Below, piece after piece: positions 1-20,681 of a stretch of 24,000 bases of DNA (position 1 is its first letter; every line of letters starts with the position of its first letter). The DNA is from Actinomycetes bacterium (GTDB lineage: Bacteria; Actinomycetota; Acidimicrobiia; Acidimicrobiales; Acidimicrobilacustridaceae), in the NCBI GenBank assembly GCA_037138595.1, contig JBAXIB010000016.1, positions 58,909 through 82,908 of the forward strand, given 5' to 3'. Both the position numbers and the translations under genes were made by a program. Under the pieces are notes generated by a model. It was not told the origin of the DNA. It did no database searches and saw only the letters and a program-made list of their open reading frames with translations.

Positions 1-600
1 GCCGGCCAGCCAAAGTCGCCATGCGAGGTCTATGCCCGCGAACGGCTGGTCAAGCCCGAGGTCAAACGAATTGACCCCATCGAGTTCAGCTCGACGTGCT
101 ACCCATGCGTGGCCAGCAATCATTGTGCGTTCCGTGAGCGGCCGTTGCCCCACTGCTGGGGTTGGCCCGGCCGGAACCACCGGAAGCGGATGACCGGTAA
201 AGCACAGTCCGGGCGATAAAGCCGGTACTCGAACTCCATCTGGTCCCGAGACGGTGCCAGCGATGATTGCCGCACCGTGCTCACGATCAAGCGCGGCGAG
301 TGCGCGCCCGACCCAATCCTGATCCACCGATACGCCCGCGCGGACATACACAATGCGTTCGGCGCGTGTTGCCGCGATTCCCCGGGCCAATGCATCGCCA
401 TGAGTCGCCCCGGGGGCATCAATGACAACATGACCTGAAGTCACCCCTTGAATAGTTGAGCTGTTGGCCACCACGATGACCTGCACCGGAGCACCGTCAA
501 TCACCATGGTGGCAGCAGCCGACAGCGTGTGTTCAATGCCGCTCGCCGATCCAGTGGCGTCAACCAGCAGCGCTACTGATGGTCGTCGCACGCTACTCAT
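1..600 (-). CDS. GT2-like glycosyltransferase homologue, partial (N-terminal 200 aa; C-terminus lies beyond the left edge). Acidic signature residues are substituted, so it may be a pseudo-enzyme.
   Basis: This ORF is not in the supplied track because it runs off the window. Manual translation from the ATG at 600..598 is open through position 1: MSSVRRPSVALLVDATGSASGIEHTLSAAA...VQVIVVANSS...ERIVYVRAGVSVDQDW...FAGIDLAWRLWLAG. By eye it is collinear with the two bona fide GT2 proteins in this window (14373..15386 and 11124..12194). Its start overlaps the wzt stop (ATGAGTAG), which suggests translational coupling. Confidence 0.6.
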   Translation of the reverse strand, partial: MSSVRRPSVALLVDATGSASGIEHTLSAAATMVIDGAPVQVIVVANSSTIQGVTSGHVVIDAPGATHGDALARGIAATRAERIVYVRAGVSVDQDWVGRALAALDREHGAAIIAGTVSGPDGVRVPALSPGLCFTGHPLPVVPAGPTPAVGQRPLTERTMIAGHAWVARRAELDGVNSFDLGLDQPFAGIDLAWRLWLAG

Positions 601-1891: not shown

Positions 1892-2784
1892 CAGAGTTCC
1901 TCCGCCAAACGCGCTTCGAATTTTCGAAATACGACCATCCCAATGACTACGACGCCGAGTGACCATACGGTCACGTATGCCACTTGACTCCACCGCGGAA
2001 ATTGCAGGTCATACAGCATCGAACGGAAAATTTGCACAAACGAGAGCATGGGATTCAATACATAGATCGTCTTTACCCACGGCGGAATTCCGTGACTATC
2101 GGTCACCGTAGTAATCGGATAAATAATCGGCGTCAGGTAGAACCACAATTGGAGACCGATGCCGACGAGGTACTGCAGGTCGCGAAAATACACATTGAGC
2201 ACCGACAGCATCAGGCCGATACCCGTCACGAACAACGTCATCAAGACCATGGCGAGAATGATCCCGAGTATCCATGGCAGCACCATGTTGCCGAGTATTA
2301 GCAAGAACACCATCATGAGACCCATCTCGATGACGAAGCTCCAGTCGAGTGCCAAGACCGTGGCATAAACCAAAATTTCGCGAGGGAAATAGACCTTTTT
2401 GATCAGCCCGGCGTTGCCTAGCAGCGCCACCATCGAGCCATTCATCCCATTGGCCAAGAAGTTCCACGCCAATAATCCGCAGAGCAAGAATGCCGGATAG
2501 TTGTTCAACCCGCTTGGACTCGTCGTCGGTGAAATACCGATCAGCCGGCCGAAAACGACCGAAAAGATCACCATCGTCGCCAACGGATTAAGCAGCGACC
2601 ACGACCAGCCCAAAACTGATCGTTTGTACTTCCCCCGCAGCTCGCGCAACGTGAGGTTGACCAGGAGGTCCCGAGATTGGGTCAGGTCAGCCAATGGATT
2701 CATCGAGCGGGGTGCCTCCAGCAGGGCCAGGTCAGGGCGAGACACCGATCCAAGATTTCGGAACGGTACGCGCATGTCAAGCAC
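1891..2784 (-). CDS. wzm: ABC-2 type polysaccharide exporter permease (Wzm/TagG type)
   Basis: The N-terminal motif LTLRELRGKYKRSVLGWSWSLLNPL is followed by about 6 hydrophobic segments, and the gene sits directly upstream of wzt with start/stop coupling. The start is uncertain: GTG 2784, ATG 2775 or ATG 2703 (MNPLADL). Confidence 0.85.
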   Translation of the reverse strand: MLDMRVPFRNLGSVSRPDLALLEAPRSMNPLADLTQSRDLLVNLTLRELRGKYKRSVLGWSWSLLNPLATMVIFSVVFGRLIGISPTTSPSGLNNYPAFLLCGLLAWNFLANGMNGSMVALLGNAGLIKKVYFPREILVYATVLALDWSFVIEMGLMMVFLLILGNMVLPWILGIILAMVLMTLFVTGIGLMLSVLNVYFRDLQYLVGIGLQLWFYLTPIIYPITTVTDSHGIPPWVKTIYVLNPMLSFVQIFRSMLYDLQFPRWSQVAYVTVWSLGVVVIGMVVFRKFEARLAEEL

Positions 2785-2853: not shown

Positions 2854-5463
2854 ATGCGAATACTGACCGTTTCTGCCCATTACCCACCCAACTTCGTCAG
2901 CGGCGGCACATTGCAGCCCCAACGCATAAGCCAAGGCCTGCGAGATCTCGGCCATGAAGTGAGTGTGTACGCCGGTTGGATCGGTGATCGGACGCCACTT
3001 GAGAGTTGGAACGACTACGACGAGACCGGCATGGCCATTCAGTGGGTGGTGAGCTCACCGTGGATCGGATGGTCCGACGAACGTAATTGGCTCAACCCGG
3101 AAATTGGCAATCACTTTCGGAACCACATCGAACAACTCAAGCCCGACATCGTTCACTTTCATGCCTTGCAGTCGCTCGGAGCGGGGTTGTTGCCGATCGC
3201 GAAATCGATCGGGGCACAAGTGGTCGTCACTATGCATGACTTTTGGTGGCTCTGTTCGCGTCAGTTCTTAGTAAGTCCGCAACTCACACCCTGCAGCCTT
3301 GTGGTTGAAGCAGGCACATGCCAGTGCGAAGTGGATATCGCATGGCGATCGAACCGTGCGGCCAAACTCGCGACGCTGCTCGAATCGGCAGACTTGGTGT
3401 TAGCGCCGTCAGCATCAGCAACCCGAGTACTCGCGGCTAACGGTGTGGCACCGCATCGACTGCACGTCGACGAAAACGGATTGCCGAGCGAGGTTGTTGT
3501 TCGACTGCGCGCTCCGCGTCAACAAAACGAAGCCACCAATAAATCAGACACGGTTCGATTTCTTTACGCCGGCGGACCGAATGTGATGAAGGGCGCTGGT
3601 GTCTTGGTCGAAGCCGTGAATCGCATTTCGGATAGCGCTGCCTGGCACCTCAGCGCCTATGGACTCCAGGCCTATCTCGATACGTCAGGTGCATCAGTTG
3701 ATCACGCAGTCGTAGACGTCATCGACTCGTTTGACCCTGATCGCCTTGGCGATGTGTTAGCTGCCCATGACGTGTTGTTACTCCCATCGATCATGCGTGA
3801 GACACACTCGTTGCTCACCCGCGAGGCACTCGCGGCAGGCCTTCCGGTGATCTGCACCGATACCCTCGGGCCTGAGGAAGTCATTACCCACGGAGTCAAT
3901 GGTCTCGTCATCCCTGCCGCAGACCCCGCTGCACTTGCTGGTGCTATCGCCCGATTAACAAACGATCCGAAGGTGCTTAGCGAACTACAACGAGGCGCGT
4001 TGGACCCGGTGGCGGCGCGGTCGCTCGACGAACAAGTACGCGGCCTCGATGCATTGTTTTCCCGACTCATCGACGACGGCCCTACCACTGCTCGATCGAG
4101 CCAACTACGCGTGTTGTTCATCGTCGGCATTGACGGCGCCCCCCTTCGCTATCGGGCGCGGTTACCGGCCGAGGGCCTTGCCCACCTTGGAGTGCCCAGT
4201 GAGGTCCGTCACTATCGAGATCCGGAACTTCTCGCACTCGGCTCGAACGCCACCGTTATCGTTTTTTATCGGGTTCCCGCAACGATCCAAGTGCTCGATC
4301 TGATCGAGTCATTCCATCGCCAAGGACTCGTCTGCATCTTCGATGTCGATGACCTCATTTTTGACCCAACGATCAGCGATGAGATCCCCGCTCTTCGATT
4401 GCTCGCGCCTGATGAAGTCACGCTTTGGCGCCAAGGAATCGACCGCTATCGCACGACGCTTGAAGCATGCGATGCCTTTATTGGCAGCACGCCGATGCTC
4501 GTCGAACGCGCCGCCAAAGTTACCGGTCTGCCCGCTTATCATTTCGCCAATGGAGTTGGCATCGCCCTGGCACGACGCAGCGATGTCGAATTGAAGCGAC
4601 CCCGCAAAGACGGCCCGCTGCGGATCGGCTATCTCAGCGGGACTACAACCCACGATGAAGACTGGTTTTCAATCGAACCAGCCGTCATCGAAGTCCTCGA
4701 CCAGCTTCCCGACGTTGAGCTCTGGCTTGGTGGACACCTCCCCGAAAGCGATGCGCTCAAACGATTCGGTGCACGAGTCATCCGACTGCCGTTTGTGTCA
4801 TGGCTTGAACTTCCGGCAATTCTCCGCGACCTTGACGTCAACGTGTCGCCGCTTGCGCCGGACAGTCGATTCAATGAAGCAAAAAGTGCAATCAAATGGC
4901 TCGAAGCGGCGCTTTGCGCGACGCCGACAATCGCTAGCCCCACTCTTCCGTTTCGCGATGCCATTTCTGACGGCAACACCGGGCTCCTCGCTAGCACTCA
5001 CCACCAATGGACCGAAGCACTCACGCGATTGTTGAGCGACGAATCCGAGCGCAGCCGCATCGGTGGTTTGGCCCGAAGGCACGCGCTTCTCGAATGGGCA
5101 CCTGCCCTCCAAGGTGAGCGCTACCGGGTAATTCTCGAAGCCGCGCTCGCAGCCGGACCAAATCCAGCCCGAACCACCGAGTCGCGGTGGCAACCAGTCG
5201 CACTTGATGAACCCTCAATGCCCAACCAACTCGAGTCGTATCCAAGCGCCGATGATTCCGCTGAACCGCTGCTCAACCGAGACAACGGCAACCTTCACCT
5301 GTCGATCAGCACTGCCACCAGTGACATCGTGCGCGGCACGCTCATGACGCGCATCGTGAGGCTTTACCACAAAGCGCTCAGCACCCTTCGGAGCGAAGGG
5401 CTTGCGATCACCGTGCGAAAATCTCAAGCGAAGCTCCGGTCCCGATACGGTGCCCGTCCATGA
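2854..5463 (+). CDS. Two-module GT-B glycosyltransferase (N-terminal GT4-like module plus a second GT1/GT4-like module), a candidate glycan polymerase
   Basis: Module 1: MRILTVSAHYPPNFVSGG..., HFHAL, and LLLPSIMRETHSLLTREALAAGLPVICTD (EX7E). Module 2 starts around LRVLFIVGIDGAPLRYR and contains ...SRFNEAKSAIKWLEAALCATPTIAS.. The C-terminal tail is basic and amphipathic (RIVRLYHKALSTLRSEGLAITVRKSQAKLRSRY). I preferred ATG 2854 over the tracked GTG 2830. Confidence 0.8.
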   Translation: MRILTVSAHYPPNFVSGGTLQPQRISQGLRDLGHEVSVYAGWIGDRTPLESWNDYDETGMAIQWVVSSPWIGWSDERNWLNPEIGNHFRNHIEQLKPDIVHFHALQSLGAGLLPIAKSIGAQVVVTMHDFWWLCSRQFLVSPQLTPCSLVVEAGTCQCEVDIAWRSNRAAKLATLLESADLVLAPSASATRVLAANGVAPHRLHVDENGLPSEVVVRLRAPRQQNEATNKSDTVRFLYAGGPNVMKGAGVLVEAVNRISDSAAWHLSAYGLQAYLDTSGASVDHAVVDVIDSFDPDRLGDVLAAHDVLLLPSIMRETHSLLTREALAAGLPVICTDTLGPEEVITHGVNGLVIPAADPAALAGAIARLTNDPKVLSELQRGALDPVAARSLDEQVRGLDALFSRLIDDGPTTARSSQLRVLFIVGIDGAPLRYRARLPAEGLAHLGVPSEVRHYRDPELLALGSNATVIVFYRVPATIQVLDLIESFHRQGLVCIFDVDDLIFDPTISDEIPALRLLAPDEVTLWRQGIDRYRTTLEACDAFIGSTPMLVERAAKVTGLPAYHFANGVGIALARRSDVELKRPRKDGPLRIGYLSGTTTHDEDWFSIEPAVIEVLDQLPDVELWLGGHLPESDALKRFGARVIRLPFVSWLELPAILRDLDVNVSPLAPDSRFNEAKSAIKWLEAALCATPTIASPTLPFRDAISDGNTGLLASTHHQWTEALTRLLSDESERSRIGGLARRHALLEWAPALQGERYRVILEAALAAGPNPARTTESRWQPVALDEPSMPNQLESYPSADDSAEPLLNRDNGNLHLSISTATSDIVRGTLMTRIVRLYHKALSTLRSEGLAITVRKSQAKLRSRYGARP

Positions 5464-6461
5464 GCAACCAATCTCGATCGTTTGAACAGCAACCTTGGTT
5501 GACAGCTATCGATGGCGAGACGATGCGTGGCCTCGAAATTGGGGCGCTCGACAAACCTCGGTTCCCCAAGCACACCTATCGTGTGCAATACGTCGATCAT
5601 GCATCACAGCCTGATTTGCGCGAGAAATACGCCGCCGATGACGCTATGCGCGATCATCTTGACGACATCGTCGAGGTGGACTTCATCTGGAATGGCGAGC
5701 GACCGCTCAGTGACGTCGTCGGCCGCGACAACCGATTCGACTATGTCTTCGCGTCGCATGTCATCGAACATGCACCCGACATGATCGGATGGATGCGCGA
5801 AATCGCCCACGTGCTCAATGACGGCGGTTTGTTGTGCCTTGCCATTCCCGACAAGCGCCTTTGTTTCGACGTCAATCGACCCCTCACCGAAATAGGCGAT
5901 CTTGTCGATGCAAACCTTCGCGAATTGCGCGCACCGGGGTACCGACAGATCTGGGATTTTCACAGCAAAATCGTCGAAGTCGACGCTGCCGCGATGTGGG
6001 CCGGCACCGCCGATTATTCCGGCACGTGGCGATCCGATCTCGACCCCGACCAATGGGCCTATGAGCTATGCCTCAAGTACCAGCAAAGTGGCGAGTACAT
6101 CGATGGGCACTGCCAAGTCTTCACTCCGCGATCATTTCTCGCGGTGTACGAAAAGCTCGTAGCGCTTGACCTCGTCGATTTTGCAATTGCCGAATTTCAT
6201 CCGTCGCAACCTGGAACGATCGAATTTCGCGTCGTCTTTGAAAAGGTCTCCCCGGAATTGCCCGCAGCAGAACGCCGAAGCGCCCAGCTTGCATCGATTC
6301 CAACCTTCGATGACCCGGTTCCTCGACCGTCTGCACTTGCTTCATCGGTGCCGGGACCAGTGCCGTTTCTCGTGACCGGTCGCGAGGAAGCGCTCATCCG
6401 ACGCAAGCGCAAACTCATTGAAGCCATCAGAAAATTGATCCCGAAAACGAACCAAACCTAA
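5460..6461 (+). CDS. SAM-dependent methyltransferase-like protein with a Pro-rich linker and a basic amphipathic C-terminal helix
   Basis: Class I MTase-like core: GLEIGALDKP (motif I-like), FDYVFASHVIEHAPD, LNDGGLLCLAIPD. The C-terminus reads ...PVPRPSALASSVPGPVPF...EEALIRRKRKLIEAIRKLIPK. Its ATG overlaps the stop of the upstream GT (ATGA at 5460..5463). Confidence 0.7.
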   Translation: MSNQSRSFEQQPWLTAIDGETMRGLEIGALDKPRFPKHTYRVQYVDHASQPDLREKYAADDAMRDHLDDIVEVDFIWNGERPLSDVVGRDNRFDYVFASHVIEHAPDMIGWMREIAHVLNDGGLLCLAIPDKRLCFDVNRPLTEIGDLVDANLRELRAPGYRQIWDFHSKIVEVDAAAMWAGTADYSGTWRSDLDPDQWAYELCLKYQQSGEYIDGHCQVFTPRSFLAVYEKLVALDLVDFAIAEFHPSQPGTIEFRVVFEKVSPELPAAERRSAQLASIPTFDDPVPRPSALASSVPGPVPFLVTGREEALIRRKRKLIEAIRKLIPKTNQT

Positions 6462-6519: not shown

Positions 6520-7551
6520 TCAGGTCGGGCGACGAAACGGATGGCGTACTCGCACCAATTTGGCGCGTATTCCGTGCAGCATTTCGGCCACGTTGACCTG
6601 CATTTCGATCAACGCCTCAAGCCGGGTTTCGAGGTGAGCGATCTGCGCCTGAACACCTTCGACCTCTCGCTGGATGTGATCGAGACGCGGCACCGTGTCT
6701 TGGCGGCTGACCTCGGTCGAGTCTGCAGCGATAAGTGCAGCGGCGATTGATGCAAAGTCGACGGTGCTTTCCGGAGCAAAACTTCGGTCGCCTACACGCG
6801 GCTCGCCGTTTGAACGCGCAACCACGACGTGACGGTAAAACGGAGCAAGCATTGATCGTTCGGCAAACGACAGATTGTACAACGTGTCATAACTGTTACT
6901 TAACGGCGATAAAGCGGGTCTGGCCTCAAGTTGAAAACGAAGCAGCATCATCACGAGCCAGTCCCATAAGTGCCCGTCACCGATCGTCTCAACCTGCCAG
7001 CCAACGTCTCGAAAAAGCTCAGTGGTCGCGGCAAGATCAGGTAATCCATTGGCGCGGTGTTCATCAAGCTGCGGCTGTTCGGTCCCCAGCGTCAGCAACG
7101 CATAGGTCCGCACTAATTCTTCGACCCCGGCAACTCCGGGAGTATCAAACGGAGCTGCAATGATCACCAGATCTCGCGAAACTCGCTGCAGTTCGGCCAA
7201 GAACGCCGGACGTCCGGCCGGAGGAACATGTTCGAGCACGTCACTACTAACGACCGCGTCGAAACTATCGTCAGCAAATGGCAACCGGGTGCCATCAGCC
7301 TGCGCAACGACCGCGCCTGCAAGCCGTTCAGTGACCACCGTGATGTCGATGCCGATCACCATGAGTTCGCCATCAAACGTATGGAGATGACCCGCACTAT
7401 CACCGACGTCGAGGACACGAATCGGTCCCGGGCCGAGGGAGCTCCGCAAGGCTCGAACAATCGCTCCGTAGCGGCCGTAACGGTCGAAGGAAGTCCATGC
7501 CATCGATGGGAACTCAATTCCGGCTTGCTCGGATCGCACTAATTCGCTCAC
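6520..7551 (-). CDS. Class I SAM-dependent methyltransferase with a C-terminal heptad-like helix
   Basis: IRVLDVGDSAGHL (motif I), DDSFDAVVSSDVLEHVPPAGRPAFLAELQRVSRDLVIIAAPF. The C-terminal ~45 aa (LDHIQREVEGVQAQIAHLETRLEALIEMQVNVAEMLHGIRAKL) look coiled-coil-like. The tracked start is GTG 7551; ATG 7503 (MAWTSFD) is an alternative. Confidence 0.75.
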   Translation of the reverse strand: MSELVRSEQAGIEFPSMAWTSFDRYGRYGAIVRALRSSLGPGPIRVLDVGDSAGHLHTFDGELMVIGIDITVVTERLAGAVVAQADGTRLPFADDSFDAVVSSDVLEHVPPAGRPAFLAELQRVSRDLVIIAAPFDTPGVAGVEELVRTYALLTLGTEQPQLDEHRANGLPDLAATTELFRDVGWQVETIGDGHLWDWLVMMLLRFQLEARPALSPLSNSYDTLYNLSFAERSMLAPFYRHVVVARSNGEPRVGDRSFAPESTVDFASIAAALIAADSTEVSRQDTVPRLDHIQREVEGVQAQIAHLETRLEALIEMQVNVAEMLHGIRAKLVRVRHPFRRPT

Positions 7552-7639: not shown

Positions 7640-9799
7640 TCACAGGTAAAATCGCTCAACAATGATGGCTACGGCTATGACGTTCAACACGCCCATTGCC
7701 GATGCAACGGTGGCCAATGGCACGAGTGGACTCAACCGAGGAATCAATCGGCGAAGCGCCAAGGTTGGCAAGACGAGAACGACCGGCACCATCATCAAGC
7801 CATAGCGCCCCTGCACAAATGAAAGGTCCCCGCCGTGTGTCCACCAGGTATACATCAGCACGTATAACTCCCCCAGTGCCGCGGCAACCATCAGTAGGCA
7901 AATGAACGTCGCCAACACCATGTCCTGTTGGACGAGATCTACGGCGCGGCCTCGCGCTCGCCACCATGTCCGCAGGTCCCATGCGAACGTGAAAACCCAA
8001 GCTGCGACTAACGCGGAACCTACGACGACTGCTACCAGGATCACTTTCGTAATGACGGGTGGATAGGGCGTGTTGATCCAGCCGAAATTCCCCCAGAACT
8101 GATCGATCCAATTCATCCGAATCGCACGAAATGAATCGGCATGCAAAACATGCAAAAAGTCGCTGAGGCCATAGGAACCAGGGCTGGGCTCACCTTGGAA
8201 TCCCACTCCCGCATATCCGTACATGGTTGACATGCCCAGCCATAATCCGTAGGTCACGACGACACCAGCGAGGCCACTGAGTGCTTCCCACCACCACGCT
8301 GCGGGTCGACATCCGCGCCAGCGACCAATGAGCCATGCGATGACGATCGCCGGCGCAAATGCCAAGCCCAGCGGTTTAGCCAACAGACCGATGCCAAACG
8401 CGCACCCGGCGGCGGCCAGCACCCAGCGAGACCGGTCGCGCGCCAACAACGACACCGCGAAATAGGCGCAGGCGGCTCCTGCGGCTATGGCCAAGGCATC
8501 GTTATTCACGATTGCCGTTTGTTGACTAAGCATTGGCTGCAATGCCACAGCAGCTCCAACCAACAACGCAGCCGATTCGCGCCCTGGAAACAACAACCGT
8601 CCAAGCCGAACCGAGAAATAAACCGCGATAGCGCCGAGCATGACGCTCCAAAGGCGCATCGACCCAATGCGAATATCGATGCCGCCTGGAGTCACCGCAT
8701 AGATCAGAGCTGGTACCGCGTAATACGCCGGGGAATAACCAGCAGCCGCTCCGTTTCCGTTCGAGTGATCACTCGTTGCGGCTGAATCCAGACGAGAACG
8801 GCCCGCCCGGACCGACACAATGTCGTAGTCGGCGCGATCACTTCGCGCGACGTCGCTTTGATGAAAGATCTCTGCTGCGGCGCGAAGTTGCTCGCTATAG
8901 ATATCAGCGGATCCAGCTGGCACCCCGCGCTTGGGGATTGCGTGTTCAACGGCAAGAAACTGTGCGTACGCCACATGAGCGCCCTCGTCGACCCCCAACG
9001 TCGGTGGGATGATCGCCGACCACAGCAGGGCCTTCACCACGACGAACGCTAAGAGTACTGCTATGCCGCGTCGGCGCGGCACAAGCGCGACTCCGGCGAG
9101 CAGCAAGATTGCGCCGACAGCAAGAAAAAGAACGAACCATTCGTCGCGCCAGAATGGCCCGTATTTACTGATGCGATGGAGCGCAGTGCCGATTTGATTC
9201 GCGGCGATCCCTTCGCCGCCGTATTCGGCCCTGATTTCAACCGCGAGCAACGACGCCTGTCCATCGGTTCGCTGTGCGCTCGGCTCAGATGCAGTCGGGG
9301 TCGCACCAAACATGGTCAATTGGTGTTCCGAATCAGCCGAAAGCGAGATCCGGAGGCGATAGGTCTGGCCGTCAGATTCCGAGCGCGGCGAAAACGTTGC
9401 CACCGACATCAACGACGCGTCCCGCAACTGCGACCATGGAATCGTCGCTACGGCAACGGGCGTACCGTCCTCACTTTCAAGGCGGGCGATAACGGTTCCT
9501 CGACCTGATTCGCCGTAAGTGCCGAACCTGACTGAGACCTGAGAAAGTCCAGCCGCATTCGCTGTGAATTGCTGTTCGATGCCTTGGCCAGGATCAAACG
9601 GAAGCACTGGCTGTTGACCAATGAGTGACGCATGTTCGGAACGCTCCGCTTGATAGCTTCCAGCCGGTCGAACGAGCACGGCGGCGACGACGAGCACTGC
9701 TCCGCCGAATATCAGGCCAGCCCAGCGAAACCGTTTGGTAATTGATGGTTGAACATCAGGTTGTCCGGTAGCCACAGCAGCGGACTCGACGGCGACCAC
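7640..9799 (-). CDS. Large polytopic membrane protein, a DUF2142/GT-C-like glycosyltransferase with an extra N-terminal exported domain
   Basis: There are more than 12 hydrophobic segments. The first large outside loop carries GVDEGAHVAYAQFL, and FVQGRYGLM lies near the C-terminus. Both signatures recur in the 17349..18896 paralogue (PDEGAHIV, LQGRYLLP). The N-terminus has one TM segment followed by a ~170-aa non-hydrophobic domain. The GTG start directly abuts the TAA stop of the upstream DUF2304 gene. Confidence 0.65.
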   Translation of the reverse strand: MVAVESAAVATGQPDVQPSITKRFRWAGLIFGGAVLVVAAVLVRPAGSYQAERSEHASLIGQQPVLPFDPGQGIEQQFTANAAGLSQVSVRFGTYGESGRGTVIARLESEDGTPVAVATIPWSQLRDASLMSVATFSPRSESDGQTYRLRISLSADSEHQLTMFGATPTASEPSAQRTDGQASLLAVEIRAEYGGEGIAANQIGTALHRISKYGPFWRDEWFVLFLAVGAILLLAGVALVPRRRGIAVLLAFVVVKALLWSAIIPPTLGVDEGAHVAYAQFLAVEHAIPKRGVPAGSADIYSEQLRAAAEIFHQSDVARSDRADYDIVSVRAGRSRLDSAATSDHSNGNGAAAGYSPAYYAVPALIYAVTPGGIDIRIGSMRLWSVMLGAIAVYFSVRLGRLLFPGRESAALLVGAAVALQPMLSQQTAIVNNDALAIAAGAACAYFAVSLLARDRSRWVLAAAGCAFGIGLLAKPLGLAFAPAIVIAWLIGRWRGCRPAAWWWEALSGLAGVVVTYGLWLGMSTMYGYAGVGFQGEPSPGSYGLSDFLHVLHADSFRAIRMNWIDQFWGNFGWINTPYPPVITKVILVAVVVGSALVAAWVFTFAWDLRTWWRARGRAVDLVQQDMVLATFICLLMVAAALGELYVLMYTWWTHGGDLSFVQGRYGLMMVPVVLVLPTLALRRLIPRLSPLVPLATVASAMGVLNVIAVAIIVERFYL

Positions 9800-10246
9800 T
9801 TAAGCCATCGCGTCAGGATCGTGACCGACATCTTTAGAACTATCGGTCAATGAATCAACCGATGAATCAATTTCATTGACGCCGGCATCGCCTTGGCCGG
9901 TTCGAGTTCGATCAGTTTCGACCGGTCCTCGAAGCAACGTAATTTCCTCTGCTAGCACCTCGACGCGCGCTTCAAGTTTCGAAACATGAATCGACAAGTT
10001 GATGCATACTCCCAGAAGAAACAGCAGCCCCACGCCGAATATGAGGCTTGTCCCATAGGCGATGCCGAGTGCCGCCGACACCTTGTCAACGACTGGCCGG
10101 GCCAAACCCAAAATGAGCGTTCCGATACCTACGCTGAGCCACAACAGGGCATAACTCTCAGATAAGCGCCGACGACGAAGAATCTCGACGGTAAAGGCCA
10201 TAAGCGTAAACGCCGCGAGGAGAACAACGATCTCGAGACGGTTCAT
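9800..10246 (-). CDS. DUF2304-family small membrane protein, the usual partner of polyprenyl-phosphate GT2 enzymes
   Basis: The sequence MNRLEIVVLLAAFTLMAFTVEILRRRRLSESYALLWL... contains 4 hydrophobic helices, followed by a helical segment KLEARVEVLAEEITLLRG and an acidic tail. It has an ATGA overlap with the upstream GT2 (10243..10246), which is the typical GT2+DUF2304 pairing. Confidence 0.7.
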   Translation of the reverse strand: MNRLEIVVLLAAFTLMAFTVEILRRRRLSESYALLWLSVGIGTLILGLARPVVDKVSAALGIAYGTSLIFGVGLLFLLGVCINLSIHVSKLEARVEVLAEEITLLRGPVETDRTRTGQGDAGVNEIDSSVDSLTDSSKDVGHDPDAMA

Positions 10247-11085
10247 GAGGCGGATTTCGATTCATCGGCTGACTCGACGATGGTGAGTTCAGGCCGCCGA
10301 ACCCGATGCAACGCGATCACCAGGACGAGACGAGTGAGGTGGTACACGCTTCGCAAAAAGTTCGCCGATGGTTCACCACCTTGACGCTCGTGCATGTGGA
10401 CTGGCACTTCGACCACCGACAATCCCCAATCGCCCGCCAAGAGCAAAGCCTCAACCGTGTCAGAGAGATAGGCGCTCGGATACGAACGAGCAAAACGGGT
10501 GATTGCAACATTCGAAAACGCGCGAAACCCGCTTGTTGTGTCATGAATCGGCGTCGCTAAATAGCGGCTGACTCGCCAGGAAAGAAACCTCATCGACGCT
10601 CGGCGCATACCCGAAACTTCATAATCCGATCCGAAACGCGAACCAACCGCGAGGTCAGCCGCGCCCGATTCGACCAACGACACCAACACCTTTACGTCCA
10701 TCACCTCGTGCTGGCCATCAGCATCTACCTGAACTGCCATCGCATAACCCTGGTCGTGTGCAAATCGAAATCCAGTTCGAAGAGCAGCGCCAACCCCAAG
10801 ATTAAACGGATGGCGAAGCACCATGGCTCCAGCTTCAGCCGCGACCGCAGCCGTGCGGTCATGGGAACCATCATCGATGACGACCACATCGGCATGGATG
10901 TTCGCAAACACGTCACGCACCACCGACGAGACAGTCTGCTCCTCATTCAGCGCCGGGATGATGACGAGCAGGGTTGGCAGGACCGTTCCTTTGGGGTGGG
11001 ACTTCACCAAACGCGAGGCCGGTGGAGTCGATGTACGTGCCGACAAACTTACGTCTTGCGAGTAGGCAACCCTAGCAATCGACAC
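10243..11085 (-). CDS. GT2 polyprenyl-phosphate sugar synthase (GtrB/DPM1/GacI-like)
   Basis: LLVIIPALNEEQTVSSVV, VVVIDDGSHDRTA, HPFNLGVGAALRTGF, AVQVDADGQHE. It is a short soluble-type GT2 (~280 aa) followed by DUF2304. The tracked start is GTG and the true start may be further downstream. Confidence 0.85.
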   Translation of the reverse strand: MSIARVAYSQDVSLSARTSTPPASRLVKSHPKGTVLPTLLVIIPALNEEQTVSSVVRDVFANIHADVVVIDDGSHDRTAAVAAEAGAMVLRHPFNLGVGAALRTGFRFAHDQGYAMAVQVDADGQHEVMDVKVLVSLVESGAADLAVGSRFGSDYEVSGMRRASMRFLSWRVSRYLATPIHDTTSGFRAFSNVAITRFARSYPSAYLSDTVEALLLAGDWGLSVVEVPVHMHERQGGEPSANFLRSVYHLTRLVLVIALHRVRRPELTIVESADESKSAS

Positions 11086-11123: not shown

Positions 11124-12194
11124 TTGATCGTGGCTCCCCTGCAACCATCCCACACCGCCGGCGCGTCAGGTGACGCGTTCGCCGATCGGGTTTCAGTCGT
11201 GATCGTGGCGTTTGGCGCCGATCCGTGGCTTGTACCGTCCGTCGATGCCGTTCTTTCGTCAGCGGGTGTCACGACCGATGTCATTGTCGTTGACAACGGT
11301 GGAACCGGTGGCCTGACCACCGATCTTGCCAAGCGAGATCGGGTGACGATCATTGGTTCTGGCGACAACATCGGATTCGCGGCCGGGTGCAACCTCGGCG
11401 TGGCCCATTCAAAGTCTCCGCTGGTGGCGCTGATTAATCCTGACGCGCGTGTCGAACCACGAGCATTGGCCGAATTGGCCCACGCGCTCGCGAACCCCGA
11501 GGTTGGGATAGCAACGGCAAGTGTTCGCCTCGCCGAGAACCCCGAATTGTTGAACTCAGCCGGTAATGCCATTCATTTTCTGGGGATCAGTTGGTCAGGA
11601 AATTTCAAGGCCGACGCGACTGACCACAACACCGAGGTACCTGTTACCGCAGCAAGTGGAGCGGCGATGATGATGCGACGGTCTACCTGGATCGACCTTG
11701 GTGGCCTCACCAATGAATTTTTCGCCTACTACGAAGACGCCGAACTCAGCCTGCGATGCTGGCAGCGCGGATTATCCGTGATCTTTGTTCCCACTGCGGT
11801 TGTCGTGCACCGTTATGAGTTTTCACGAAACCCGCTCAAGTACCAGCTCCTTGAACGCAATCGACTGATCTTGGTACTCACGACGTTTGGGACCCGGCAC
11901 CTTGTGCTCATGGCTCCTGCGTTCCTCGCGATTGAACTGGCGATTGTGGCAACCGCTGCGGCGCAAGGATGGCTGGGACCCAAGTTGAAGGGATATGTGT
12001 GGCTCGCTCGCAACGTGCGATGGATTCGCCAGAGACGACGCTCAGTCCAAAACGCGCGCACGGTGTCGGACTCGAACATGGCTCCATTATTTGCAAGCAA
12101 ACTTCAGCCCGAAAATCTGCCGCCACCAAAAGCACTCCAACCATTTGATCGGCTCCTTGTTCGCTATTGGGCGGTCGCTCGTCGGTTCCTGTAA
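11124..12194 (+). CDS. GT2 family glycosyltransferase (WbbL-like rhamnosyltransferase type)
   Basis: VSVVIVAFGADPW, VIVVDNGGTGG, GDNIGFAAGCNLG, ALINPDARVEP, FFAYYEDAELSLRCWQRGL. The tracked start is TTG at 11124, so the exact start is uncertain. Confidence 0.85.
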   Translation: MIVAPLQPSHTAGASGDAFADRVSVVIVAFGADPWLVPSVDAVLSSAGVTTDVIVVDNGGTGGLTTDLAKRDRVTIIGSGDNIGFAAGCNLGVAHSKSPLVALINPDARVEPRALAELAHALANPEVGIATASVRLAENPELLNSAGNAIHFLGISWSGNFKADATDHNTEVPVTAASGAAMMMRRSTWIDLGGLTNEFFAYYEDAELSLRCWQRGLSVIFVPTAVVVHRYEFSRNPLKYQLLERNRLILVLTTFGTRHLVLMAPAFLAIELAIVATAAAQGWLGPKLKGYVWLARNVRWIRQRRRSVQNARTVSDSNMAPLFASKLQPENLPPPKALQPFDRLLVRYWAVARRFL

Positions 12195-12213: not shown

Positions 12214-12942
12214 ATGATTAAGACTTCGAAGAAGGCGACTCAACGACGTGCGCTCGAGCTTCTTCAGGCGTCGGCCGATGCCGACGCCGAGGGATACGTT
12301 CATCTCCAGACAATCCCCTACCGTGGCCACCACCTTCTGACCGCTGCAGTTCTTGACGTGACGAACCCCGGTGATCGCGTGTTCGAAGGCGGTGTCTCAT
12401 CGGGGTATTTCGCGTCCGTGTTGGTGCGGGCCGGACTTCGTGTCGACGGCCATGAGCTGGATCCGAATGTCGCAGTACGCGCCCGCGAGGTTTGCGACAA
12501 CGTGTATGTCGGCGATCTCACTATCTTTGATCCTGAAGCCCTTGACGGCATGTACGACGTGCTGTTGTTCGGCGACACGCTTGAGCACCTGCCCGATCCA
12601 GCCCAAGTGCTCCGAGGGTTGAAAACAAAGTTGAGGCCGGGCGGAAGCCTGATCGTCAGCGTCCCCAATATTGCCAACTGGGCGATCCGTTTGTCGCTGC
12701 TCGCTGGCCGATTCAATTACACCGATCGAGGCATCCTGGATAGAACTCACCTGCGATTCTTCACCGTGCATACGTTGGCCGAAATGCTTGGCGACGCAGG
12801 ATTCGAAGTGACTTCACTCGTCGGATCAATTCCTGTTCCCGGCGTGAATGGCCAAAGAATGGGTCGACTCACGCATCGCATCGGCAATGTGCGGCCATCG
12901 ATTGCCGCTTACGGTCTCATCGTGACGGCCAAAGCTCGCTGA
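12214..12942 (+). CDS. Class I SAM-dependent methyltransferase
   Basis: DRVFEGGVSSGYFA (motif I-like), YDVLLFGDTLEHLPDP, LRPGGSLIVSVPNIANWAIRLSLLAGRFNYTDRGILDRTHLRFFT. I chose the start at ATG 12214 (MIKTSKK), 20 nt after the upstream GT2 stop. The tracked ORF extension from 11995 lies inside that GT2. Confidence 0.8.
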   Translation: MIKTSKKATQRRALELLQASADADAEGYVHLQTIPYRGHHLLTAAVLDVTNPGDRVFEGGVSSGYFASVLVRAGLRVDGHELDPNVAVRAREVCDNVYVGDLTIFDPEALDGMYDVLLFGDTLEHLPDPAQVLRGLKTKLRPGGSLIVSVPNIANWAIRLSLLAGRFNYTDRGILDRTHLRFFTVHTLAEMLGDAGFEVTSLVGSIPVPGVNGQRMGRLTHRIGNVRPSIAAYGLIVTAKAR

Positions 12943-12954
12943 CGCACTAAGCGG

Positions 12955-14277
12955 TCAGACCTCCATTGGGATGTCATTAATCGCATCAAGGAGATTGTCA
13001 GTCGTGGGTGCTGCCCCGCTGGCGATTGCTCGCCGAAGCAGAAACGCCATGGCCACCAGCGCAACCAGCGCCGCGCCCAAAAATGCAAGTTCAACGGTGA
13101 ACAATGGATCGTTCCCGAACCCAACGATCGCCATCATCGCCACGACGCCCGCACCCCAACCAAACGCCACGTGAGCCGCCAAGCCCAGTGCGATGAGCGC
13201 CTGAGCCAACGTCATCGCGACGATAAAACATGCCGTCGCCGCGGCCAACATGCCGACCGTTTGCCGACTGACCACGAACTCAGGTCCGAAAATGAGTTTG
13301 ATGAGTGATGGTCCAATCACGAGCACGACTACGACTCCGCCAGCGCCAATCGCGGTAACGGCGAGCACCATACGGCGAATCCCTGCGTTGAATTCGTCAA
13401 ATTTTCGCGCGACGGCCAATGCCGCCAGTGCGGGCAGCAACACCGCTTGCAACGCCTGAAACAAAAACAACGGGACGCGAGCGACCAAGAGTGCGGCCGT
13501 GAAGATGCCGACTTCGGCCGCTTGGTCTGGTCCAGCAAGGAACTGAAGCACTACCGGTGACGCATTAATCAAGGTCTGGGCCAGCAACGCTGCCGCCAAA
13601 AGCTTCCCAAGGCCAGCGGCAAGTTCACGCCAGGCAACATCCGGTTGCGCCAACGAATGATCGCGCCGCCACCAAAGGGCTGGAACTGCTACCACAAGCG
13701 GCGCTAGCCCTAATGCGAGTCCAATTGGCCCCGCGGTACGCACGCCTGAGGCGAGTAAGACAATGCAACATGCCAAGCGCACGAGTGCTTCACCGCCGAG
13801 AAACGTCCCGTATCGACCGAACCGCCCCAATCCGGACAAGATGCCCTCGGTCCAATTGGCGATGAGATATCCAGTCGCTCCCGCCAGCAGGCCGACAACG
13901 AGGAGCCCCTGACCACTGAACAGTCGGTCGGTCAGTGCCGGCGCCGCAATTGTGATTGCGATGGAAAGCACCGCGACCAACATGATGCCGAGCGCTAACG
14001 ACCGGCGGATGATCGAAGTTCCACCCAGGCCAGCGACACGCCTTCCAACTAGTCGGCGGCTGACTTCTTGTTCGAACGGCAGGAAGACTCCGCCGATCAA
14101 GAAAACCAGCGACCACAGAACCGCCAAACTGCCGTACTCACTTGGCCCCAGCACCCGAGCTGAAATGACCAAGTAGCAATAAGACGCGATTCCGGTAACC
14201 GCCAAACCTATGCCAACGGGGATCGTTCCGGTCGGAAGCGAGATGCGACCAGACCGCTCAGATGGAGACATAGCCAT
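12955..14277 (-). CDS. Wzx/MOP-superfamily polysaccharide or lipid-linked-sugar flippase
   Basis: The 440-aa protein is almost entirely hydrophobic (roughly 12-14 TM segments). It has the N-terminal pattern ...ARVLGPSEYGSLAVLWSLVFL... common in Polysacc_synt/RfbX-type proteins. A GGGAGAG Shine-Dalgarno-like element lies about 8 nt upstream of the ATG. Confidence 0.6.
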   Translation of the reverse strand: MAMSPSERSGRISLPTGTIPVGIGLAVTGIASYCYLVISARVLGPSEYGSLAVLWSLVFLIGGVFLPFEQEVSRRLVGRRVAGLGGTSIIRRSLALGIMLVAVLSIAITIAAPALTDRLFSGQGLLVVGLLAGATGYLIANWTEGILSGLGRFGRYGTFLGGEALVRLACCIVLLASGVRTAGPIGLALGLAPLVVAVPALWWRRDHSLAQPDVAWRELAAGLGKLLAAALLAQTLINASPVVLQFLAGPDQAAEVGIFTAALLVARVPLFLFQALQAVLLPALAALAVARKFDEFNAGIRRMVLAVTAIGAGGVVVVLVIGPSLIKLIFGPEFVVSRQTVGMLAAATACFIVAMTLAQALIALGLAAHVAFGWGAGVVAMMAIVGFGNDPLFTVELAFLGAALVALVAMAFLLRRAIASGAAPTTDNLLDAINDIPMEV

Positions 14278-14372: not shown

Positions 14373-15386
14373 TCAGGAGCGGCCGATCCATTGCGTTAGC
14401 TGCGCCATGGGCACGGTTCGCCGTTGGCGAATGTGGCGCCGTTCGAGCAACGCGGCCGGCACCAATCGCAAGAACCCAACATAAGCGCGCAATCGGATTC
14501 TCACCGTCGTCAGATCAAGACGTGACTTGGTCGAACGAGATGAAGTTACTGCCGAGCGCAAGTATGACAACGTCGTCAGGGGGTGACGGTACGCCGCGCT
14601 CCATGCGAGTGCACGCGGAGCATTCTTGACCAACACCACGAGGCGATTACGTTCGTTGAAATACTGGAACACTTCGCTACCGGTTCCAGTACTGGCGGCA
14701 TGCAAATGCAAGACCATTGAGGTCGGTTCATATCGATACCGCCAGCCGCGGCTTTGACCACGCCATGCCAGATCAGTGTCCTCGTAATAAAGAAACAATC
14801 GAGAATCGAACAATCCAACATCAGCCAGATAGCTCGGTCGCAACAACACGCTGCCACCACACCAAGTAAAGATCTCTGCCGGTTCGTCGAATTGTCCGGT
14901 GTCGGGTTGGCCAAATCCCCGGTCAGCACCGCTCCCATCGGCGAGAACGATCCCGCCGACATTGTTGATGATGTTTCGGCCATCATCCGTGGATCGTTCG
15001 GCAAATACGATTTTTGACTGCACCGCGCCGAGCCCGCTGTCATCGTCAAGTGCCTGAACCAACGGGTCAAGCCAATGGGGTTCGACGAATGCATCGTTGT
15101 TCAACAATGCGACGTAATCGACATCAGCCAAGTCAGTGAGCGCCAAGTTATTGGCAACAAATCCGAGATTTGAACCGGTCTCTCGAATAGTGACCTCCGG
15201 GTGCTCGACTCGCATCGTCGCCACACTGTTATCGGCAGAGGCGTTGTCAAGGACAACGACCTCTACGTCATGGACGGTCTCGATTGCCGCCAGCGCATCA
15301 AGGCATTTCATGACGGCGGCACCACCGTTGAAGTTCACGATGATCACGCGGATCCGGCGTTGCGGCCCAGGCGGGATACTCGTCAT
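14373..15386 (-). CDS. GT2 family glycosyltransferase (WbbL-like rhamnosyltransferase type)
   Basis: IRVIIVNFNGG, VVVLDNASADNS, GSNLGFVANN, ALLNNDAFVEPHWL, LFLYYEDTDLAWRGQSRGW. Confidence 0.85.
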   Translation of the reverse strand: MTSIPPGPQRRIRVIIVNFNGGAAVMKCLDALAAIETVHDVEVVVLDNASADNSVATMRVEHPEVTIRETGSNLGFVANNLALTDLADVDYVALLNNDAFVEPHWLDPLVQALDDDSGLGAVQSKIVFAERSTDDGRNIINNVGGIVLADGSGADRGFGQPDTGQFDEPAEIFTWCGGSVLLRPSYLADVGLFDSRLFLYYEDTDLAWRGQSRGWRYRYEPTSMVLHLHAASTGTGSEVFQYFNERNRLVVLVKNAPRALAWSAAYRHPLTTLSYLRSAVTSSRSTKSRLDLTTVRIRLRAYVGFLRLVPAALLERRHIRQRRTVPMAQLTQWIGRS

Positions 15387-15411: not shown

Positions 15412-16254
15412 TCAGGTTGCCAGGATCCTTTTCACGAGCCGACCAAGCGGTTCGTGAAAATCGGAGGCCAGCGGGAGTCCACCAAGTCGAAGCGCAGCGT
15501 TGTCCAATACCGAATTCGCGGGTCGCGGCGCAGGACGCGCTGGTTTCAGGTCAGCAGTCGACACGGGATTAACTCGAGCAGCGTCCAAGCCGGCGGCTTC
15601 CAGCACCGCCTGGGCAAACTCGTACCAACTGACTGCACCCTGGTTGGTCACATGGAACAAACCCGCTCGCCGTTCGACAACAAGGCGGCGGACCACCCGT
15701 GCGAGATCATCAGCAAAGGTCGGATGCCCACGTTGGTCGCTCACAAACGACAATGAGTCGTGTTCATTTGCGAGCCGCAATATGGTTTTGACCATGTTCG
15801 CTCCGTGAAAACCGCTCACCCACGATGTGCGCACAATGGTGTCGGAAGTTCCGAGTTCGCGTTCGCCGCCCAGTTTTGAGCGTCCATACACCGAGGTCGG
15901 ATTCGTGTCATCCCATTCGGTATACGGCGCAGTCTTGGTGCCATCAAAGACGTAATCGGTCGACAGGTGACACACCCATGCTCCGGCAAAGCGAGCCGCA
16001 TCGGCAATGTGTCGAACGGCTAGTGCGTTTATGGCCCATGCCTTATCGATTTCAGATTCACACAGGTCAACGGCAGTAAAGGCTGCGCTATTGACGATCA
16101 CGTCGGGTTGTTTCGATGCAACAAATCCTACAACAGCATCTCGATCGGTTACGTCGAGTTCGCTATGGCCTGCGGCAATTACATCATGATCAGAAAAAAC
16201 GTCGACCAACTCGCGACCGACCTGGCCACCTGCTCCGGTAATAAGAATACGCAT
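15412..16254 (-). CDS. rmlD: dTDP-4-dehydrorhamnose reductase
   Basis: MRILITGAGGQVGREL, SAAFTAVD, STDYVFDG, PTSVYGRSKLGGE, RTSWV. I chose the start at ATG 16254. The tracked extension to 16464 overlaps rmlB. Confidence 0.92.
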   Translation of the reverse strand: MRILITGAGGQVGRELVDVFSDHDVIAAGHSELDVTDRDAVVGFVASKQPDVIVNSAAFTAVDLCESEIDKAWAINALAVRHIADAARFAGAWVCHLSTDYVFDGTKTAPYTEWDDTNPTSVYGRSKLGGERELGTSDTIVRTSWVSGFHGANMVKTILRLANEHDSLSFVSDQRGHPTFADDLARVVRRLVVERRAGLFHVTNQGAVSWYEFAQAVLEAAGLDAARVNPVSTADLKPARPAPRPANSVLDNAALRLGGLPLASDFHEPLGRLVKRILAT

Positions 16255-16294
16255 CAGGAGTGCCTCGTCATAGTGGTCATTCGGGCGGTGCTCA

Positions 16295-17251
16295 TCAATT
16301 TCCCCTGAGCGGTTCCCACCACCAACGATTCTCCCGATACCAAGCAACCGTTTCTTCGAGTGCTTCGTCGAGTGAACGCTGTCGATGCCATCCCAACTCA
16401 GTGATCTTTGCGATGTCAACCGAATAGCGCCGATCGTGTCCAAGCCGATCAGGGACGTAATCAATCATCTCATCACCAACACCCAATAGGCCCAAAATTT
16501 TGTCGACGAGCACACGATTGGGCGTTTCATTGCCAGCACCAATGTTGTAAATCTCGCCAGGGGTGCCTCTCTCGAGCACTAAGTGCACGGCGGCGCAGTG
16601 ATCATCGACATACAGCCAATCTCGCTCGTTAAGTCCGTCGCCATAAAGCGGAATGTGTCGACCGTCGAGCACGTTGGTCGTAAACAACGGGATCGCCTTT
16701 TCCGGATATTGGTATGGCCCGAAGTTATTGGTGCATCGGGTGACCATGACCGGCGTGCCGTAGGTTTGGTAATACGACAGGGCGATCAGGTCGCTTCCTG
16801 CCTTTGACGCCGAGTAAGGCGAACGAGGTTCGAGTGGGTCGGACTCACGAGACGAACCAACTTCAACCGAGCCGTACACTTCATCGGTCCCGATATGAAT
16901 GACGCGGTCAATCTCGAGTGCGCGGGCCGTGTCAACCACAACGTTGGTTCCAAAACAATTGGCATTCACGAAATCGTCTGGTCCCAATATCGATCGATCG
17001 ACATGACTCTCGGCCGCAAAGTGCACGACCGCATCATGACCAGCCATGGATTGCTCAAGTGTGGCGCGGTCGGTGATGTTTCCTTTCACGAATCGGAACC
17101 GAGGGCTGTCATCCACATCGCGCAACGTCGAAAGGTTGCCGGCATAGGTCAATGCGTCAAATACCGTGACTTCGTCATCGCTATGAGCCAACACGTGTCG
17201 CACGTAATTCGAACCGATGAAGCCGGCAGCGCCGGTAACAAAAAGCTTCAT
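16295..17251 (-). CDS. rmlB: dTDP-glucose 4,6-dehydratase
   Basis: MKLFVTGAAGFIGSNYV, VHFAAESHVDRS, TDEVYG, SPYSASKAGSD, NNFGPYQYPEK, GDGLNERDWLYVDDH. The start is ATG 17251, or ATG 17257 two codons upstream. Confidence 0.95.
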   Translation of the reverse strand: MKLFVTGAAGFIGSNYVRHVLAHSDDEVTVFDALTYAGNLSTLRDVDDSPRFRFVKGNITDRATLEQSMAGHDAVVHFAAESHVDRSILGPDDFVNANCFGTNVVVDTARALEIDRVIHIGTDEVYGSVEVGSSRESDPLEPRSPYSASKAGSDLIALSYYQTYGTPVMVTRCTNNFGPYQYPEKAIPLFTTNVLDGRHIPLYGDGLNERDWLYVDDHCAAVHLVLERGTPGEIYNIGAGNETPNRVLVDKILGLLGVGDEMIDYVPDRLGHDRRYSVDIAKITELGWHRQRSLDEALEETVAWYRENRWWWEPLRGN

Positions 17252-17348
17252 AACCATTATCTTCGCAGACGACGCCACACGACAGCGAAAATGCTCAATA
17301 GTCATTCCATGGCCACCGAAACCATCGGAGTACCATCAAGCGATCCCC

Positions 17349-20655: not shown

Positions 20656-20681
20656 TGGCCCGTTCGATTGGACCCGATGTA

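Follow-up and report, generated by a model that had tools for sequence, protein, structure and literature searches.

The genes described here lie in a stretch of 24,000 nucleotides from an actinobacterium of the order Acidimicrobiales (positions 58,909 to 82,908 of contig JBAXIB010000016.1, assembly GCA_037138595.1), which has a G+C content of ~57% and is referred to as the window. The analysis centres on three neighbouring genes of the minus strand, which encode a family 2 glycosyltransferase (GT2), a small DUF2304 membrane protein and a polytopic glycosyltransferase of the GT-C type:

10243..11085, minus strand: GT2 gene with GTG start, 280 amino acids; candidate polyprenyl-phosphate sugar synthase (GacI/WpsA/PpgS-like)
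9800..10246, minus strand: DUF2304 gene with ATG start, 148 amino acids; candidate membrane anchor or activator of the GT2 (GacJ/WpsB/Rv3632-like)
7640..9799, minus strand: GT-C gene with GTG start, 719 amino acids; DUF2142/PMT_2 type with an Emb-like N-terminal extension

It is likely that the GT2 and the DUF2304 protein together make a polyprenyl-monophosphate sugar, which would be flipped by a protein of the MOP (multidrug/oligosaccharidyl-lipid/polysaccharide) superfamily encoded in the same locus and transferred by the 719-amino acid GT-C to an exported rhamnose polymer. The stop codon of the GT2 gene and the start codon of the DUF2304 gene share an ATGA overlap (10246..10243), and the TAA of the DUF2304 gene (9802..9800) abuts the GTG of the GT-C gene (9799..9797) without a gap. 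An earlier note on this DNA had described three start/stop-coupled genes, and its coordinates and both junctions were confirmed. The start of the GT2 is ambiguous: the gene call of another assembly uses a GTG at 11007, which results in a protein of 254 amino acids. Homologues of the GT2 consist of 234 to 254 amino acids, and the long start of the 280-amino acid version leaves ~40 nucleotides to the divergent neighbour.

The GT2 matches the Pfam family Glycos_transf_2 (PF00535, 3.5e-22), which has a GT-A fold, and the motifs IIPALNEE, VIDDGSHD and VDADGQHE are found at residues 42, 69 and 120. The earlier note had read these motifs as GtrB/DPM1-type, an assignment that is supported by the profile searches: besides the Pfam match, the best NCBIfam matches are PpgS (NF058614, 6.6e-34), AglJ and a dolichyl-phosphate hexose transferase, and the best matches in the PDB are the dolichyl-phosphate mannose synthase of Pyrococcus (5mlz, 6e-9) and ArnC (6e-8), with the NEE, DDxS and DAD-x-QH segments aligned. 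All of these closest matches synthesise polyprenyl- or dolichyl-phosphate monosaccharides. A hydropathy scan of the GT2 predicted no transmembrane (TM) segment. Because the score against the PpgS equivalog model (117.3 bits) lies far below the cutoff of 370, the GT2 is classified by this profile as a relative of PpgS and not as PpgS itself or its orthologue, and a sugar identity taken from the PpgS match was rejected for the same reason. To our knowledge, all characterised pairs of a GT2 and a DUF2304 protein use UDP-N-acetylhexosamine, and N-acetylhexosamine (HexNAc) is therefore favoured, by analogy, as the best guess for the donor sugar.

The 148-amino acid protein matches DUF2304 (PF10066) at 2.1e-20 and contains three predicted TM helices (residues 4-22, 31-49 and 68-86, hydropathy scan), which are followed by an acidic C-terminal tail; its description as a small DUF2304 membrane protein thus stands. 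A comparison with PDB sequences gave no meaningful match. GacJ of Streptococcus pyogenes and Rv3632 of Mycobacterium tuberculosis also belong to the DUF2304 family, and both stimulate their GT2 partner (10.1101/180810; PMC9671496). When metagenome loci were seeded on DUF2304 alone, a GT2 gene was found directly upstream and on the same strand in all of them (25/25). What lies downstream varies and can be a GT-C gene, wzm/wzt or housekeeping genes. Since the GT2 always adjoins DUF2304 while the following genes change, the GT2-DUF2304 pair is the invariant unit, and the operon of three genes is characteristic of the sub-clade to which the window belongs. In five loci (L045, L051, L053, L056 and L057), two divergent GT2-DUF2304 pairs are located back to back. 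In comparison with the pair of the window, the second one shows identities of ~44% (GT2) and 30-36% (DUF2304), which suggests that two different lipid-phosphate-sugar synthases are encoded in one genome.

The 719-amino acid protein matches the Pfam family PMT_2 (PF13231) at 4.3e-9 with 37.2 bits (cutoff 26.1) over residues 379-513. This is its sole Pfam match at E<=0.01, and the protein has no match of its own to DUF2142 (PF09913). Only 45 relatives were found in a collection of 5.8 billion proteins, many of which also match DUF2142 and PMT (PF02366); a match to PF09913 is present in most homologues. Furthermore, the protein is homologous to a 559-amino acid DUF2142 protein encoded elsewhere in the window (BLASTP; hhalign probability 97.8%, E=1e-12), and the DEGAH motif of one is aligned to the DEGAH motif of the other. 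Judged by these relationships, the 719-amino acid GT-C is probably of the DUF2142 type, like WpsI and WpsJ of lactococci. An alignment of 35 relatives was used for structure prediction with AlphaFold2, for profile searches and for hhalign. In this alignment, the invariant residues include D271, E272, H275, R322, R382, N433, D434, K475, R665 and Y666. As searches of PDB sequences with either the single protein or the profile of the alignment revealed no match to a GT-C, the fold was assigned via AlphaFold2 and Foldseek. The predicted model (predicted local distance difference test, pLDDT, 93.1; predicted template modelling score, pTM, 0.93) is most similar to Pmt4 (3e-5), ArnT (9e-5) and EmbC (9e-4) in the PDB, followed by Pmt1/2, oligosaccharyltransferase and ALG enzymes. 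The GT-C matches have a Foldseek probability of ~1.0 and moderate template modelling scores (TM-scores; 0.39/0.55 for Pmt4 and 0.31/0.23 for EmbC). The earlier note had called the protein GT-C-like, and a GT-C fold was indeed found; the proposal of that note would have failed for a protein unrelated to GT-C folds, which is not the case here.

Since the best structural match is the protein O-mannosyltransferase Pmt4, a different acceptor has to be considered, which could be peptidoglycan, a lipoglycan, a polymer of the teichoic type or, by O-glycosylation as in PMT enzymes, a secreted or wall protein. Some homologues of the GT-C match the Pfam family PMT, secreted repeat proteins are encoded nearby, and in mycobacteria the GT-C gene is unlinked to that of its donor synthase (PMC9671496). 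However, the similarity to Pmt4 is only moderate by TM-score, the lactococcal DUF2142 relatives have been assigned to polysaccharide substrates (PMC12599335), and the synteny with wzm/wzt, the rml genes and a gene for an 877-amino acid protein with two GT4 units is kept across two actinobacterial classes, and an acceptor other than the rhamnose polymer is therefore improbable.

The AlphaFold2 model and hydropathy indicate the following order: TM1 (residues 20-43), a beta-sandwich (residues ~46-195) that is accompanied by a short helix, TM2 (220-237), a five-residue RRRG loop (about residues 241-245), TM3 (242-263) and a loop with the DEGAH motif. Two features of the protein stand out:

9146..9670, minus strand: beta-sandwich domain (residues ~44-218, ~170 amino acids), predicted to be extracytoplasmic, between TM1 and TM2
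8975..8989 (D271-E272 at 8989..8984), minus strand: D271-E272-G-A-H275 motif in the outside loop after TM3; putative catalytic or metal site

According to the positive-inside rule, the short basic RRRG loop is probably cytoplasmic, which would place both the beta-sandwich and the DE loop outside. The DE-containing loop had previously been described as the first outside loop; it is predicted to be outside and corresponds to the canonical first loop in the core of a GT-C, but as it follows TM3, an earlier part of the protein forms the first outside segment. This part is the beta-sandwich (residues 46-215), whose strands span residues 73-193 of the model. Foldseek gave weak matches to CBM6 domains (1o8p and 2cdp, E ~0.03-0.04), and the profile of the alignment matches a fungal lectin in its N-terminal domain (1y2t, E=0.007), a weak match that is treated as a hint only. 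Relatives of the domain are rare (46 of 1.84 billion representatives) and are almost all located at the N-terminus of proteins of ~700 amino acids. Based on the model, the domain is possibly a carbohydrate-binding module. In distant relatives of the GT-C from metagenome-assembled genomes (MAGs) of Eisenbacteria, Chloroflexi and Limnocylindria (L028-L031), the similarity starts only at residue ~235-255; these proteins have neither the N-terminal TM hairpin nor the beta-sandwich, and a PpgS-like GT2 is encoded ~0.7-1 kb downstream.

A jelly-roll or beta-sandwich in the first outside segment corresponds to an Emb-like layout. In EmbB, the PDN domain separates the TM helices TMH1 and TMH2, and PL2 carries the DDX motif (PMC7305291). 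The shared N-terminal order of TMH1, jelly-roll, TMH2, TMH3 and catalytic loop (PMC7305291), as well as the presence of EmbC among the Foldseek matches, would also be consistent with a processive GT-C of the Emb type, which builds a homopolymer or a branch outside the cell from repeated lipid-phosphate-sugar donors. This is very improbable: the protein is ~350 residues shorter than the Emb proteins and has no Emb-like C-terminal periplasmic domain, the TM-scores with EmbC are low, and a relation to Emb was not detected at the sequence level.

A further component of the likely decoration pathway is encoded on the other side of the GT2 gene:

12955..14277, minus strand: MOP-superfamily (Wzx-type) flippase candidate, 440 amino acids

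This protein has no match of its own in Pfam or in PDB sequence searches. Some of its homologues match PF01943 (Polysacc_synt) or PF03023 (MurJ), and the homologues are labelled 'O-antigen/teichoic acid export membrane protein' by JGI. The AlphaFold2 model (pLDDT 86.7) has a MOP fold and gives the highest Foldseek TM-score with the lipid III flippase WzxE (9g9n, 0.72/0.77); MATE and MurJ structures are also among the matches. The homologue profiles and the WzxE-like predicted fold thus agree with the Wzx-type flippase proposed before. As a backbone that is exported by an ABC transporter needs no Wzx protein, its presence in the locus fits a separate lipid-linked substituent.

The 719-amino acid protein is encoded on a metagenome contig of 204 kb in the ENA. 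The closest genomes that carry it are MAGs of Acidimicrobiales and Microthrixaceae, and more distant relatives (28-36% identity) are found in cultured Cellulomonas and Actinotalea strains, among them Cellulomonas sp. Leaf334 (L016) and C. terrae NBRC 100819 (L020). In tblastn searches with all proteins of the window, the complete set of genes was found again in Acidimicrobiia, Cellulomonas and Actinotalea: the GT2-DUF2304 pair and the MOP flippase, wzm/wzt and the rml genes, the methyltransferases, and the double-GT4 protein, which is ~51% identical. The pair adjoins the GT-C gene in most acidimicrobial loci and is located 1-6 kb away from it in Micrococcales; overall, 17 of the 22 informative genome loci have the pair at a distance of at most 10 kb from the GT-C relative. 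The Microthrixaceae MAG MFD02134.bin.2.27 contains three versions of the whole locus (L007, L013 and L014), whose GT-C proteins are 44-64% identical to that of the window; for the rml genes, the identity is ~85%. L007 and L013 carry many apparent frameshifts. The threefold occurrence could reflect diversification, a mixture of strains or an assembly error.

The remainder of the window provides the machinery for an exported rhamnose-containing polymer as well as additional enzymes:

593..1993, minus strand: wzt, PF00005; C-terminal carbohydrate-binding domain Wzt_C (PF14524) at 2.6e-31
1891..2784, minus strand: wzm, PF01061
15412..20604, minus strand: rmlD, rmlB, rmlC and rmlA of the dTDP-L-rhamnose pathway (PF04321, 8e-88; PF16363, 2e-67; PF00908, 3e-37; PF00483, 2e-52)
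17217..18896, plus strand: second GT-C gene, DUF2142 (PF09913, 1.4e-30), 559 amino acids, with its own DEGAH motif and without an N-terminal beta-sandwich
11124..12194, plus strand: GT2 gene (356 amino acids; PF13641 and PF00535), divergent from the three-gene operon
14373..15386, minus strand: GT2 gene immediately downstream of rmlD (15412..16257, minus strand), with a weak match to TIGR01556
6520..7551, minus strand: S-adenosylmethionine (SAM)-dependent methyltransferase gene (PF08241, 6.7e-10), 88 nucleotides downstream of the GT-C gene
5460..6461, 6520..7551 and 12214..12942: the three SAM-dependent methyltransferase genes of the locus
20646..22226, plus strand: GH25 muramidase with C-terminal repeats
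22249..24000, minus strand: secreted protein of 583 amino acids with C-terminal repeats

Pfam confirmed the rmlABCD and wzm/wzt genes that had been named in the earlier note. The rml run is interrupted between rmlB and rmlC by the second GT-C gene, which is read in the opposite direction; the start of the long open reading frame of this GT-C gene overlaps the region that encodes the N-terminus of RmlB, and its true start probably lies further downstream. The operon probably includes the methyltransferase gene 6520..7551 as its fourth gene, and a methyltransferase gene also follows the GT-C gene in the loci L004, L006, L007, L008, L013 and L014. Between positions 6300 and 13000, 12 terminator-like sites (8.1±2.6 expected) and one promoter-like site (2.3 expected) were observed, which do not inform on the limits of the operon. 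The stop codon of the gene for the 877-amino acid double-GT4 protein overlaps the methyltransferase gene 5460..6461 by ATGA. The combination of Wzt_C and three methyltransferases resembles the chain termination of the E. coli O8/O9a type, where the carbohydrate-binding module of Wzt recognises a methyl cap. The 356-amino acid GT2 matches the rhamnosyltransferase model TIGR01556 at 3.4e-12, a score below the cutoff, and its divergent position next to the operon is kept in many loci; it is a candidate for a backbone rhamnosyltransferase or for an enzyme that extends the lipid-linked sugar. In M. tuberculosis, rmlD and wbbL are arranged in the same way as rmlD and the GT2 gene 14373..15386, and the latter may encode the first rhamnosyltransferase of the backbone. 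The GH25 muramidase and the 583-amino acid protein share repeats of ~45 amino acids ('GDWNGDGTDTPGv.RG.WYL.N'), which are present in at least four and at least three copies, respectively, and may constitute a module that binds the wall polysaccharide. Nothing above the Pfam cutoff was found in these repeat regions. An assignment of the repeats to PLL propellers, which stems from a homologue in locus L004 that matches Beta-prop_PLL, was rejected, being unsupported for the proteins of the window. Genes for galactan or arabinan synthesis were not found among the window proteins scanned with Pfam, and a literature search on rhamnose-containing wall glycopolymers of Cellulomonas yielded nothing usable, so that no chemical structure is tied to the locus.

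The additional glycosyltransferases, the methyltransferases and the second GT-C bear on the question of what is transferred. In Lactococcus, WpsA and WpsB prime the synthesis by forming GlcNAc (N-acetylglucosamine) on undecaprenyl phosphate (C55-P-GlcNAc), the cytoplasmic glycosyltransferases WpsC-F extend this primer, and the Wzx protein WpsG flips the product (PMC9574508). The GT-C WpsJ then grafts the oligosaccharide onto the rhamnan, while WpsI polymerises it (PMC9574508). A variant of this dual-chain type is also possible for the window and is put forward tentatively: the GT2-DUF2304 pair would only prime, the cytoplasmic GT2s (11124..12194 and 14373..15386) and the methyltransferases would build an oligosaccharide, Wzx would flip it, and the two DUF2142 GT-Cs would graft and possibly polymerise it. 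It shares the general mechanism with the transfer of a single sugar, differs from it only in what is transferred and is inseparable from it by sequence. In favour of such a variant, the second GT-C and probably also the 719-amino acid GT-C are of the DUF2142 type, and WpsI has a DUF2142 domain, while the candidates for WpsJ are DUF2142 proteins (PMC12599335); furthermore, WpsA and WpsB, the homologues of GacI and GacJ, start the oligosaccharide on undecaprenyl phosphate (PMC9574508). A GT2 and a methyltransferase are kept as divergent neighbours of the pair, and a second methyltransferase follows the GT-C. Because SAM-dependent methylation would have to precede flipping, these enzymes hint at a lipid-linked unit that is modified in the cytoplasm. 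The two extra GT2s, both of which are syntenic, could, however, equally be backbone rhamnosyltransferases, as both weakly match TIGR01556. Among the open reading frames of at least 140 amino acids, no co-polymerase resembling WpsH or Wzz, with a large loop outside and a pair of TM helices, was found. GacK of S. pyogenes, moreover, shows that a Wzx-type flippase can serve a single sugar (PMC9574508). Given the probable DUF2142 type of the GT-C, an oligosaccharide side chain would be at least as plausible as a transfer of a single sugar of the GacL type. A broader proposal is that Acidimicrobiia and Cellulomonadaceae build a lactococcus-like dual-chain wall polysaccharide, which would consist of a methyl-capped, ABC-exported rhamnan and of possibly O-methylated oligosaccharides that start from a lipid-monophosphate primer. 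The oligosaccharides would be attached or polymerised by the two DUF2142 GT-Cs, of which one would contribute a near-private Emb-like lectin domain. This proposal is rather unlikely; if true, the logic of the rhamnose-containing cell wall polysaccharides, which has so far been studied in ovococcal Firmicutes, would be shared by deep-branching Actinobacteriota.

Returning to the decoration pathway in its general form, its steps may proceed as follows. At the cytoplasmic face of the membrane, the DUF2304 protein with its three TM helices would hold and activate the TM-less GT2, which would move a sugar (most likely HexNAc by family precedent) from a nucleotide sugar onto polyprenyl monophosphate. 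The Wzx-type protein would flip the lipid-linked sugar, possibly after its extension or O-methylation by the neighbouring cytoplasmic enzymes. Outside the cell, the 719-amino acid GT-C would transfer the sugar to the rhamnose-containing polysaccharide via the loop with the invariant residues D271, E272 and H275, and its beta-sandwich may hold the acceptor. The remaining genes of the locus would synthesise this polysaccharide, and Wzm/Wzt would export it. The extracytoplasmic decoration proposed in the earlier note is thus supported at every point that is open to sequence, profile or fold tools; what the enzymes do, which sugar and acceptor they use and which of the two GT-Cs takes this donor is inferred from homology and synteny. 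Several points weigh against this proposal. Three loci with a GT-C gene (L010, L011 and L018) have no GT2-DUF2304 pair within 10 kb, and in more distant loci seeded on DUF2304, wzm/wzt or housekeeping genes take the place of a GT-C gene downstream of the pair. It could be the second GT-C (17217..18896) that actually uses the donor, the PpgS cutoff that was not reached counts against an assignment of the sugar, and neither an initiating phosphoglycosyl transferase nor an LCP (LytR-CpsA-Psr) ligase is encoded in the window.

Wall decorations of this kind usually set phage receptors, antigenicity and the resistance to wall hydrolases, and genetic tests would be feasible in those carriers of the locus that are cultured Cellulomonas and Actinotalea strains. 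The compact GT-C with its Emb-like N-terminal beta-sandwich may, furthermore, serve as a tractable model of the way in which polysaccharide acceptors are held by GT-C enzymes.

Several known systems share parts or all of this architecture. The GtrA/B/C system follows the same logic of lipid-phosphate-sugar synthase, flippase and polytopic transferase. GtrB has C-terminal TM helices of its own, whereas the GT2 of the window has none; the flippase here has a MOP/Wzx fold and is not of the small GtrA type, and DUF2304 is not a Gtr component. A match to the GtrA family was not found among the open reading frames scanned with Pfam, and membership in the GtrABC system was rejected, as the GT2 has no TM anchor and a GtrA protein is missing. 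The GT-C shares with EmbA/B/C the GT-C fold, a jelly-roll between TMH1 and TMH2 and, behind TMH3, a loop with the catalytic acidic pair, which is putative in the GT-C of the window. In contrast to the Emb proteins, it consists of 719 instead of ~1,050-1,100 amino acids and has no C-terminal carbohydrate-binding domain and no detectable sequence similarity, and the donor synthase is a GT2 and not the decaprenylphosphoryl arabinose (DPA) pathway.

The system of S. pyogenes consists of GacI, which makes GlcNAc-P-undecaprenol, and the DUF2304 protein GacJ, which binds and stimulates GacI (10.1101/180810; PMC8035078; PMC9574508). The Wzx-type protein GacK is the proposed flippase, and the GT-C GacL transfers the sugar to polyrhamnose (10.1101/180810; PMC8035078; PMC9574508). 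GacL has been placed in the Pfam family PMT_2 (PMC8035078), to which the 719-amino acid protein also belongs. Compared by shared Pfam families, the parts are the same (an anchorless GT2, a DUF2304 protein with three TM helices, a Wzx-type flippase and a PMT_2-type GT-C), as is the context of rml genes and an ABC-transporter rhamnan locus. However, the window comes from another phylum, its GT-C is DUF2142-like and has an extra TM hairpin that carries the 170-amino acid beta-sandwich, and a second GT-C as well as three methyltransferases are present. The Gac system had been named as the closest match in the earlier note; all of its parts are present, and since the GT-C is probably of the DUF2142 type, a WpsJ-type enzyme fits at least as well. 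With the lactococcal WpsA/B/G/J system, including WpsI, the window has in common the primer pair of the GacI/J type, the Wzx flippase, one or more DUF2142-type GT-Cs, extra cytoplasmic glycosyltransferases and an ABC-exported rhamnan. The lactococcal scheme has no methyltransferases, and a WpsH-like co-polymerase, as mentioned above, was not among the open reading frames of at least 140 amino acids.

The actinobacterial counterpart is found in M. tuberculosis, in which PpgS (Rv3631) and Rv3632 make polyprenyl-P-GalNAc (N-acetylgalactosamine), and Rv3779 transfers galactosamine (GalN) to arabinogalactan (PMC9671496; PMC3485146). C. glutamicum has homologues as well (PMC9671496; PMC3485146). This system shares with the window its actinobacterial origin, a DUF2304 partner that is co-transcribed with the GT2 and a GT-C that uses, or in the window would use, a lipid-phosphate sugar outside the membrane, and PpgS is the best NCBIfam match of the GT2. 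The GT-C gene is part of the same operon here and is located elsewhere in M. tuberculosis, and the context is that of rhamnose and ABC export and not of arabinogalactan. Thus, the concept is already known and its actinobacterial version is published, and the locus is of value for annotation and comparison and not as a new concept: as a new example, it extends the decoration mechanism of GacIJKL/WpsABGJ and PpgS/Rv3632/Rv3779 to the Acidimicrobiia, an almost entirely uncultured class.

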